Made by a program: the position numbers and the translations under genes. Under the pieces are notes generated by a model. It saw only the letters and a program-made list of their open reading frames with translations, did not search any database and was not told the origin of the DNA. Of a stretch of 64,000 nucleotides of DNA, positions 919 through 1,269 are shown one piece after another. The DNA lies in assembly GCF_003334405.1 (NCBI RefSeq), contig NZ_QOWM01000001.1; one strand, 5' to 3'. The stretch comes from Escherichia coli. GTDB taxonomy: Bacteria > Pseudomonadota > Gammaproteobacteria > Enterobacterales > Enterobacteriaceae. Within the stretch, counting starts at the first letter, position 1. Each line of letters starts with the position of its first letter.

Positions 919-1269
919 AAAAGGTTCCTTGAAGTATGTCCCACGCTGTGGACGGTACTTACATTAAGGCACAACAGGACAAAATGGTCAATTCTTCGTT
1001 ATGTAAAAAAGCGTCAGTGGATACATATTTTAATGTTATGGAAGTTAATTTAATTATTTACAATGATGATGTAATAATGATGAATTAACATGATAAACGT
1101 AATAATTCATTAATCAGGGTTATTTTGTTTGATATATATCAATTGGTACTTTCATATGACACTTAGAATCAATGCTCTCTATAGTGATGAATAATCATCA
1201 TTCGAAGTCAGGTGGGATGCCTGTCTGAATACACCTCCTTCAGGATGTGGGGGATTCTGCTGAGCATCT

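Follow-up and report, generated by a model that had tools for sequence, protein, structure and literature searches.

The class II FNR promoter of Escherichia coli pdeF (yfgF) and the ATGAT copies in its AT-rich, probably H-NS-binding upstream spacer

In all likelihood, nucleotides 1129–1177 of the window (the whole stretch of 64 kb that was analysed) constitute the known class II FNR promoter of pdeF, and the ATGAT copies that lie upstream of it are incidental to a spacer which binds H-NS. The class II FNR mechanism is established in general. Under anaerobiosis, dimeric [4Fe-4S]-FNR would bind the TTGAT-N4-ATCAA palindrome centred at -41.5, where it would overlap the -35 region and contact RNA polymerase, and would activate transcription of pdeF from a TAGAAT -10 hexamer with a start near 1177. 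The ATGAT copies at 1063–1094 would represent a largely Escherichia-specific pattern within a conserved AT-rich spacer between the yfgG and pdeF promoters. H-NS, together with StpA, would bind this AT-rich DNA without a strict motif and limit the occupancy of FNR, leaving pdeF silent under some anaerobic conditions.

The window begins in the yfgH–yfgG / pdeF (yfgF)–ppx region of E. coli. The end of yfgH is found on the minus strand within the first 5 kb. The yfgG gene (727–918, minus strand; ORF list) encodes a 63 amino acid DUF2633 protein, annotated in RefSeq as 'YfgG family protein', and a nickel/cobalt tolerance phenotype has been described for it (PMC6338753). It is divergent from pdeF (1270–3513, plus strand; ORF list, RefSeq and Pfam), the product of which is a 747 amino acid protein possessing a MASE1, a degenerate GGDEF and an EAL domain, with homologues in Pfam PF05231 and PF00563. 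After pdeF comes ppx, on the minus strand. By megablast, nucleotides 700–1500 are present in 5,424 of the 5,426 complete genomes of E. coli, where the annotation gives yfgG and, for pdeF, 'cyclic-guanylate-specific phosphodiesterase PdeF'. The site considered here is the divergent yfgG–pdeF intergenic region of 351 bp.

A sequence-only reading of this region had singled out a palindrome "about 130 bp" upstream of the pdeF start as an exact FNR consensus, and had taken it to be consistent with anaerobic induction of the gene. Both the match and the distance were confirmed. The sequence TTGATATATATCAA at 1129–1142 is a perfect 14-bp palindrome, the centre of which (1135.5) lies 134.5 bp from the ATG at 1270. 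It is the sole match to TTGATNNNNATCAA in the 64-kb window (10/10); shuffled sequences gave a mean of 0.05 matches per shuffle, with any match in five of 100 shuffles. A spacer of 21 bp separates the box from the TAGAAT hexamer at 1164–1169 (plus strand). The region thus combines a 10/10 inverted repeat with the box–21 bp–-10 geometry that places an FNR box at -41.5, as in class II FNR promoters, and this geometry implies that transcription of pdeF would start near 1177. A second candidate pdeF promoter, ATGACA-18-TATAGT, was rejected since its -10 is not conserved beyond the E. coli clade, unlike TAGAAT/TAAAAT.

The promoter has been described before. PMC3718329 places the FNR box of yfgF at -41.5, after Lacey, Partridge & Green 2010, and gives it as TTGAT--ATCAA in E. 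coli and TTGAC--ATCAA in S. Enteritidis. It likewise names TAGAAT as the E. coli -10 and TACAAT as that of S. Enteritidis and, citing Lacey 2010, describes yfgF expression as FNR-activated with its peak anaerobically. FNR–yfgF has been entered in a RegulonDB curation paper as activator, under anaerobiosis. A preprint on massively parallel reporter assays includes neither yfgF nor yfgG. In Myers 2013 (Tables S5 and S6) yfgF/yfgG has an FNR peak by both ChIP-seq and ChIP-chip, and the one FNR site predicted there is TTGATATATATCAA, with a PWM score of 16.08. In Table S9 of the same study yfgF shows no FNR-dependent expression change in the wild type in glucose minimal medium, despite FNR binding, and its other regulators are given as 'Unknown'. 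The reading of the palindrome as an FNR site for anaerobic induction of pdeF is therefore correct, the evidence being the published class II box at -41.5 and the ChIP peaks; the site is established knowledge and provides no new lead. A gallium-stress-selected IS5 insertion has also been reported; its position, 104 bp ahead of yfgF, corresponds to the TTAG within the -10 hexamer.

To what is known of this promoter we can add its invariance. Using a protein search and contig look-ups, pdeF and its upstream DNA were collected in 23 sequences from six genera (Escherichia, Salmonella, Citrobacter, Enterobacter, Phytobacter and Kluyvera). Besides the window sequence, the E. coli clade was represented by four lineages with 92–93% protein identity, deposited under the names E. 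coli (two), E. whittamii and Escherichia sp. (one each). The other sequences came from a lineage with 82% protein identity, E. fergusonii, Salmonella, four Citrobacter species, Enterobacter asburiae, two Phytobacter species and seven Kluyvera-like genomes. In 23 of 23 orthologues TTGAY-N4-RTCAA is followed, after exactly 21 bp, by TAGAAT, TAAAAT or TACAAT; the geometry of box, spacer and -10 is invariant across the six genera.

The second claim of the sequence-only reading was that ATGAT recurs at 1063, 1077 and 1091, exactly 14 bp apart, within an AT-rich tract, and that this direct-repeat array might bind an additional regulator. The tract is indeed AT-rich (77.5% A+T at 1000–1128) and the copies at 1063 and 1077 are present, but the third begins at 1090 rather than 1091, so that the spacings are 14 and then 13 bp. 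Moreover, an overlapping copy at 1066 had been missed. The four plus-strand copies (1063, 1066, 1077 and 1090) are spaced by 3, 11 and 13 bp and have just 5 bp in common. The tract (1062–1094, plus strand) can be parsed otherwise, as two copies of AATGATGA (1062 and 1076) or as an 11-bp tandem AATGATGATGT|AATAATGATGA (1062–1083), and Tandem Repeats Finder reported a period of 11, not 14, at 1062–1082 (1.9 copies, 90% matches). A direct-repeat array would show at least three copies at constant spacing, usually in helical phase (about 10–11 or 21 bp), retained in orthologous promoters. Here the spacing is uneven, copies 13–14 bp apart do not fall on one face of the helix, and the copies are not kept in orthologues.

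Nor is the pattern rare. Four same-strand ATGAT copies in the 351-bp intergenic region have P=0.05 in dinucleotide-preserving shuffles, 3.2% of such shuffles contain some non-trivial 5-mer in three near-regular copies, and 11 of 364 windows (3%) of 351 nt drawn from the same 64-kb sequence likewise hold a 5-mer with such near-regular copies. Since about 3% of windows hold such a pattern, several chance arrays are to be expected in any 64-kb scan. What does count against our interpretation is the abundance of AATGATGA. Counted together with its complement, it has three intergenic copies against 0.06 expected (and eight copies in the whole window), in a test chosen post hoc and with one of the three intergenic copies forming an arm of the 5'-UTR hairpin.

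Alignment of the orthologues shows that the ATGAT array is not a conserved element, whereas the architecture around it is conserved. In the segment orthologous to 1062–1094, the window has four copies and the four other E. coli-clade lineages have 3, 3, 2 and 1. At most one copy (0–1) is present in the 82% lineage and in E. fergusonii, Salmonella and Citrobacter, and none in Enterobacter, Phytobacter and Kluyvera. By column profile, G1065 and G1068 are replaced by A in 6–7 of the seven non-coli lineages, where AATGATGAT reads ATTAATAAT. Positions G1065, G1068, G1082, T1091 and G1092 agree with E. coli in only one to three of eight lineages; within the third copy the figures are 3/8 for T1091 and 2/8 for G1092. 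Across genera, the copy at 1077 is alone in being widely retained, in the form TAATGATAA. Around the array, by comparison, conservation extends over the yfgG -35 and -10 blocks and over 1002–1017, 1034–1049, 1054–1062, 1075–1083 and 1093–1114. Given the inexact spacing, the decay within Escherichia, the absence from other genera and the want of any consensus match above chance, the proposal of an extra regulator-binding ATGAT array is unsupported.

The yfgG promoter, which borders the spacer on its other side, is encoded on the minus strand at 963–991 and consists of a -35 TTGACC (991 to 986), a 17-bp spacer and a -10 CTTAAT (968 to 963), with a transcriptional start near 949–955. It was predicted in PMC3946193, and in our alignment its hexamer blocks CATTAAGGCA and ATGGTCAATT are invariant across 12 sequences. 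ChIP peaks and start sites were mapped onto the window using the FNR motif coordinate 2627088 as anchor. In this way a sigmaS ChIP peak and a start site at 2627275, as well as a strong anaerobic sigma70 ChIP-seq peak at 2627279, fall at the yfgG promoter, near 949–955. Several natural isolates carry an IS1 in the yfgG–pdeF spacer near 994–1002.

The notion that some factor besides FNR acts on the AT-rich spacer (1000–1128) is reasonable, and experiments point to H-NS/StpA; H-NS, with StpA, is the most likely additional factor. The GC content of the spacer is 0.21–0.26 in 100-nt windows compared with 0.4–0.5 in the flanks, such that A+T stands well above the genome average over at least 100 bp, as in H-NS silencing regions. 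In Shimada et al. 2014 the yfgF/yfgG spacer is marked with a site for the RpoD holoenzyme and with one for H-NS, the latter from genomic SELEX. According to Table S7 of Myers 2013, the FNR peak average at yfgF increases from 0.35 to 1.68 when both hns and stpA are deleted (Δhns ΔstpA), and Table S11 includes yfgF among the genes whose expression responds to O2 only in that strain. For the ATGAT tract itself we infer composition-dependent H-NS binding and not recognition of ATGAT. The high-affinity H-NS motif TCGATAAATT reaches just 7/10 in the spacer.

Several observations count against an explanation by H-NS only. In wild type no H-NS ChIP-chip peak overlaps the FNR site (Myers 2013; 'None' in Table S6, and no 26269xx–26274xx entry in Table S3). 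Simple composition-driven binding would not require the conserved blocks, including TAATGATRA at 1075–1083, and FNR binds without an expression change in glucose minimal medium, which would be compatible with a further regulator of pdeF. A genomic SELEX match has also been reported for PgrR, a LysR-type regulator, for the yfgF/yfgG spacer as a whole, with no site mapped within it. We gave this match little weight because other reported PgrR targets include loci that are AT-rich and H-NS-bound.

To look for such a regulator, 18 transcription factor consensus sequences were scanned over the spacer against mononucleotide shuffles. The set comprised Fur, ArcA, ArgR, IHF, the H-NS high-affinity motif, CRP, Lrp, Fis, NarL, PurR, TyrR, MetJ, CpxR, PhoP, NsrR, Zur, NikR and OmpR. 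None scored above chance in the spacer, and FNR was the only significant match. Fur, considered on account of the gallium-selected IS5, was rejected with a match at chance level (12/19, P=0.63). ArcA matched at 12/16 (P=0.22) and was likewise rejected, neither yfgF nor yfgG being mentioned in the supplements of the ArcA ChIP study. No second FNR site was found in the intergenic region, either by consensus scan or among the predictions of Myers 2013; the next best match there to TTGAT-N4-ATCAA scores 7/10 and lies at 1188, outside the tract.

Among other explanations, one is that the conserved AT-rich blocks just upstream of the FNR box, the 11-bp tandem included, form the site of a sequence-specific co-regulator, for example a two-component response regulator, which gates FNR activation of pdeF and/or controls the divergent yfgG. 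We regard this as unlikely, although if true it would explain why FNR is bound without activation in glucose minimal medium. Its narrower version, which we hold to be quite unlikely, is that the tandem at 1062–1083 is itself the site of a dimeric OmpR/PhoB-type response regulator or similar co-regulator, gating pdeF and/or yfgG, and that the supposed array was a real site wrongly parsed. A spacing of 11 bp is the one used by OmpR/PhoB-type response regulators, and it sets both units on one face of the helix. At the same position the two units agree at 10/11 in Salmonella (ATTAATAATAA|ATTAATGATAA) and C. rodentium and at 9/11 in C. amalonaticus and E. coli, and the E. coli sequence differs from that of the other genera at unit positions 2 and 10 in both units. 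The Salmonella/Citrobacter form moreover resembles YTTAAK-N5-YTTAAK, the PmrA/BasR box, and the period and 90% matches reported by Tandem Repeats Finder and the 'Unknown' co-regulator of yfgF (Myers 2013) would also fit. Against this, we estimate that at 78% A+T adjacent 11-mers with 9/11 identity are expected about once per region, and most orthologues hold equally good repeats at other periods. The tandem is missing from E. fergusonii, C. pasteurii, Kluyvera, Enterobacter and Phytobacter despite their conserved flanking architecture, its centre is about 105 bp from the pdeF start site and about 118 bp from that of yfgG, which is far for such activators, and the ArcA-type consensus and ArcA ChIP results were negative, as given above.

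The remaining alternatives assign a role to the copies themselves. If AATGATGA were the element of an Escherichia-specific repressor, the direct copies at -115 and -101 and an inverted pair at +7 to +26 could be joined by looping around the FNR promoter and keep it off. Exact copies do occur at 1062 and 1076 (plus strand) and at 1195–1202 (minus strand), together with AGTGATGA at 1183, where 0.06 are expected in the intergenic region; the near-palindrome just past the start site is in a typical operator position, and in glucose minimal medium FNR occupies its site with no FNR-dependent expression. We nevertheless consider a repressor very unlikely. The downstream inverted repeat is retained at the RNA level, as a hairpin whose loop length varies and whose stem changes preserve pairing, which argues against a DNA operator of fixed geometry. 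Upstream, the copies already differ among members of the E. coli clade (AGTGATGA, AACAATGA, AATGACGA and AATGATGG). The motif was picked post hoc, and no known regulator was matched to it, the Fur consensus included. More improbable again is that the copies, which match TTGAT at 4/5, are degenerate FNR half-sites recruiting a second, upstream FNR dimer as at yfiD, where a distal FNR site near -93.5 down-regulates the promoter. With the copy at 1077 such a site would have its centre near -93, and among the FNR sites of Myers 2013 at least one (ATGATTAAGGTCAA) includes ATGAT as a half-site; yet none of the copies has a partner half-site, the 7/10 match at 1188 being outside the tract, that study predicts only one FNR site at yfgF/yfgG, and the copies are not conserved. 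Least credible of all is a coding origin, in which the repeats are the codons AAT GAT GAT GTA ATA ATG ATG AAT TAA at the 3' end of a small gene at 984–1088. This reading frame is annotated by PGAP/RefSeq as a 34 amino acid hypothetical protein (WP_048815475.1) and is open in the Escherichia sequences. Only 4–5 of its codons remain open in Salmonella, C. sedlakii and C. rodentium, where the DNA can still be aligned, its ATG falls within the conserved -35 of the opposite-strand yfgG promoter, and its variation bears no sign of coding constraint. We ruled it out on its non-conservation.

The inverted repeat AGTGATGAAT/AATCATCATT at 1183–1202 (plus strand; +7 to +26), identified by repeat search and folding, would form a 5'-proximal stem-loop of the pdeF mRNA. 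A hairpin occupies this position in 21 of 23 orthologues, with differing stems (GAUGA/UCAUC, UGGC/GCCA and CCGCG/CGCGG) and loop lengths. Since it is conserved as a hairpin and not as sequence, a DNA operator at this palindrome was dropped in favour of an RNA hairpin, and two of the four AATGATGA-type copies (one exact, one near) are thereby removed from the regulator-array reading.

Further downstream the pdeF leader (1205–1272) is almost invariant across the six genera. Hairpin A (1209–1223, plus strand; CAGGU-GGGAU-GCCUG) carries a GGA in its loop and is invariant across genera, its four core pairs being formed in 20 of 20 sequences of the RNAalifold consensus. Hairpin B (1234–1253, plus strand; CCUCC-UUCAGGAUGU-GGGGG) also has a GGA in its loop, which is unpaired in 22 of 23 orthologues when these are folded individually, and its stem differs between lineages (CCUCC/GGGGG, CCCUU/AAGGG, AACCCU/AGGGUU, AUACCC/GGGUAU and CCCAC/GUGGG). 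A possible pairing of GGAUGC (1215–1220) with GCAUCU (1264–1269), directly before the pdeF AUG, was noted. Two GGA motifs in hairpin loops tens of nucleotides apart is a pattern that resembles CsrA binding sites. A further feature of CsrA-bound leaders is a site that overlaps the Shine-Dalgarno sequence; no GGA is found in the 16 nt before the pdeF ATG, and a literature search yielded no link between CsrA and yfgF/pdeF. The supplements of CsrA CLIP and transcriptomic studies contain no pdeF entry, which says little as aerobic expression of pdeF is not expected. Rfam gave no match for the leader and, over 900–1500 (E≤10), only sub-threshold chance matches, one of them a snoRNA C/D-box model on the ATGATGA tract; a known RNA family was therefore rejected. 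This unannotated and very strongly conserved leader could place an anaerobic c-di-GMP phosphodiesterase under a further, post-transcriptional layer of control.

The region illustrates that a sequence-only reading can recover a true regulatory site, and that short AT-rich 'periodic' repeats beside true sites are easily over-interpreted. Its discovery value is small, the FNR site being published and ChIP-confirmed and the array failing the comparison with related genomes. The point of biological interest is that pdeF has a perfect FNR site which is bound while the gene is silent in some anaerobic conditions, and that the only modulator implicated is H-NS/StpA.

With respect to known systems, the class II FNR promoters of E. 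coli are the same object, the yfgF/pdeF promoter itself having been described by Lacey, Partridge & Green 2010. The tract shares with the direct-repeat operators of response regulators (ArcA boxes, 11 bp centre-to-centre; PhoB and PmrA) the short, same-orientation AT-rich repeats upstream of an anaerobically controlled promoter and, in one parse, the 11-bp period. It differs from these boxes in its 5-bp unit, its 14/13-bp spacing and its lack of conservation, of an ArcA ChIP signal and of any consensus above chance. The tandem FNR sites of yfiD (grcA) are similar in combining a class II FNR site with upstream sequence that could modulate it, and unlike yfiD, pdeF has no second full FNR site upstream. 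The spacer also has a parallel in the H-NS/StpA-masked FNR targets (categories 5 and 7 of Myers 2013, e.g. hlyE). Like these, pdeF has an AT-rich promoter, an FNR occupancy which increases in Δhns ΔstpA, a place in the list of genes with O2-dependent expression only in that background, and an H-NS genomic SELEX site. Unlike the fully masked targets, its site is FNR-bound already in the wild type and is not covered by an H-NS ChIP-chip peak, from which it follows that the silencing of pdeF would be partial or condition-dependent instead of amounting to full masking.

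The AT-rich spacer between the divergent yfgG and pdeF promoters contains four conserved blocks, at 1002-1017 (TGTAAAAAAGCGTCAG), 1034-1049 (TGTTATGGAAGTTAAT), 1054-1062 (TTATTTACA) and 1093-1114 (AAACGTAATAATTCATTAATCA), which are kept from Escherichia to Citrobacter and in part as far as Kluyvera. Two copies of GTTAATT lie in the same spacer, at 1044-1050 (+) and 1083-1089 (-), where we estimate that about 0.1 copies would be expected at the spacer composition. They fit GTTNATT, a motif reported for the anaerobic nucleoid protein Dan (TtdR); both copies are poorly conserved in the alignment. 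Inside the last block, AAACGTAATAATTCATTAATCA, TAAT-N5-ATTA forms a LysR-type T-N11-A pattern, and a genomic SELEX match for the LysR-type regulator PgrR has been reported in the yfgG/pdeF spacer.

RefSeq/PGAP annotates a 34 amino acid hypothetical protein (WP_048815475.1) at 984-1088 on the + strand, the 3' end of its ORF being the ATGATGATG tract. In Salmonella, C. sedlakii and C. rodentium only 4-5 codons of the ORF are left, and its start falls within the yfgG -35 element; the annotation is probably spurious. The two promoters also share an 11-mer (GGTACTTACAT / GGTACTTTCAT), found at 954-964 in the yfgG TSS/-10 region and at 1145-1155 in the stretch that separates the FNR box from the pdeF -10; this sharing is probably due to chance.

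Insertion sequences have entered the spacer repeatedly, at ~994-1002 (~596-1372 of the compared locus L087) and at 1163-1166. At the former, between the yfgG -35 and the AT-rich tract, IS1 is present in several natural E. coli genomes. As for the latter, an IS5 at -104 of yfgF (now pdeF) has been described that rose to a frequency of 0.5 in a population under gallium selection, and we place this site on the TTAG at 1163-1166, within the FNR promoter's -10 hexamer.

The PdeF of E. fergusonii (L080) is only 75% identical to that of E. coli, the Citrobacter and Salmonella proteins being 73-76% identical, and its upstream DNA aligns with the Citrobacter-type sequence. The remaining full-length orthologues of the Escherichia clade (L002-L005, L014) show 92-93% identity to E. 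coli PdeF.

The inverted repeat AGTGATGAAT/AATCATCATT at 1183-1202 corresponds to +7 to +26 of the pdeF transcript. Of the 23 orthologues, 21 retain a 5'-proximal hairpin at this place in the RNA; the stems are unrelated in sequence and the loops vary. The repeat probably represents a stem-loop at the 5' end of the mRNA, and it may contribute to mRNA stability.

Further downstream, the pdeF 5' leader (1205-1272) is nearly invariant over six genera, including the sequences directly upstream of pdeF in loci L002-L016 and L079-L086. It is predicted to form two hairpins, each with GGA in the loop: the invariant hairpin A (1209-1223; CAGGU-GGGAU-GCCUG) and hairpin B (1234-1253), the stems of which vary by lineage while the loop GGA is found in 22/23 orthologues. 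In Enterobacter and Phytobacter a run of 4-6 T follows hairpin B (L006, ~1440-1465; L007 and L008, ~1450-1478), in the sequences CCCAC..GUGGGGUUUU and CCCA..UGGGUUUUUU; no such run occurs there in the Escherichia or Kluyvera sequences. In the two former genera the arrangement resembles an intrinsic terminator or attenuator, placed shortly before the pdeF start codon. The leader matched no Rfam family, and we found no literature link for it. GCAUCU (1264-1269), immediately 5' of the pdeF AUG, could pair with GGAUGC (1215-1220). These features of the leader are reminiscent of CsrA sites or of an anti-RBS switch.
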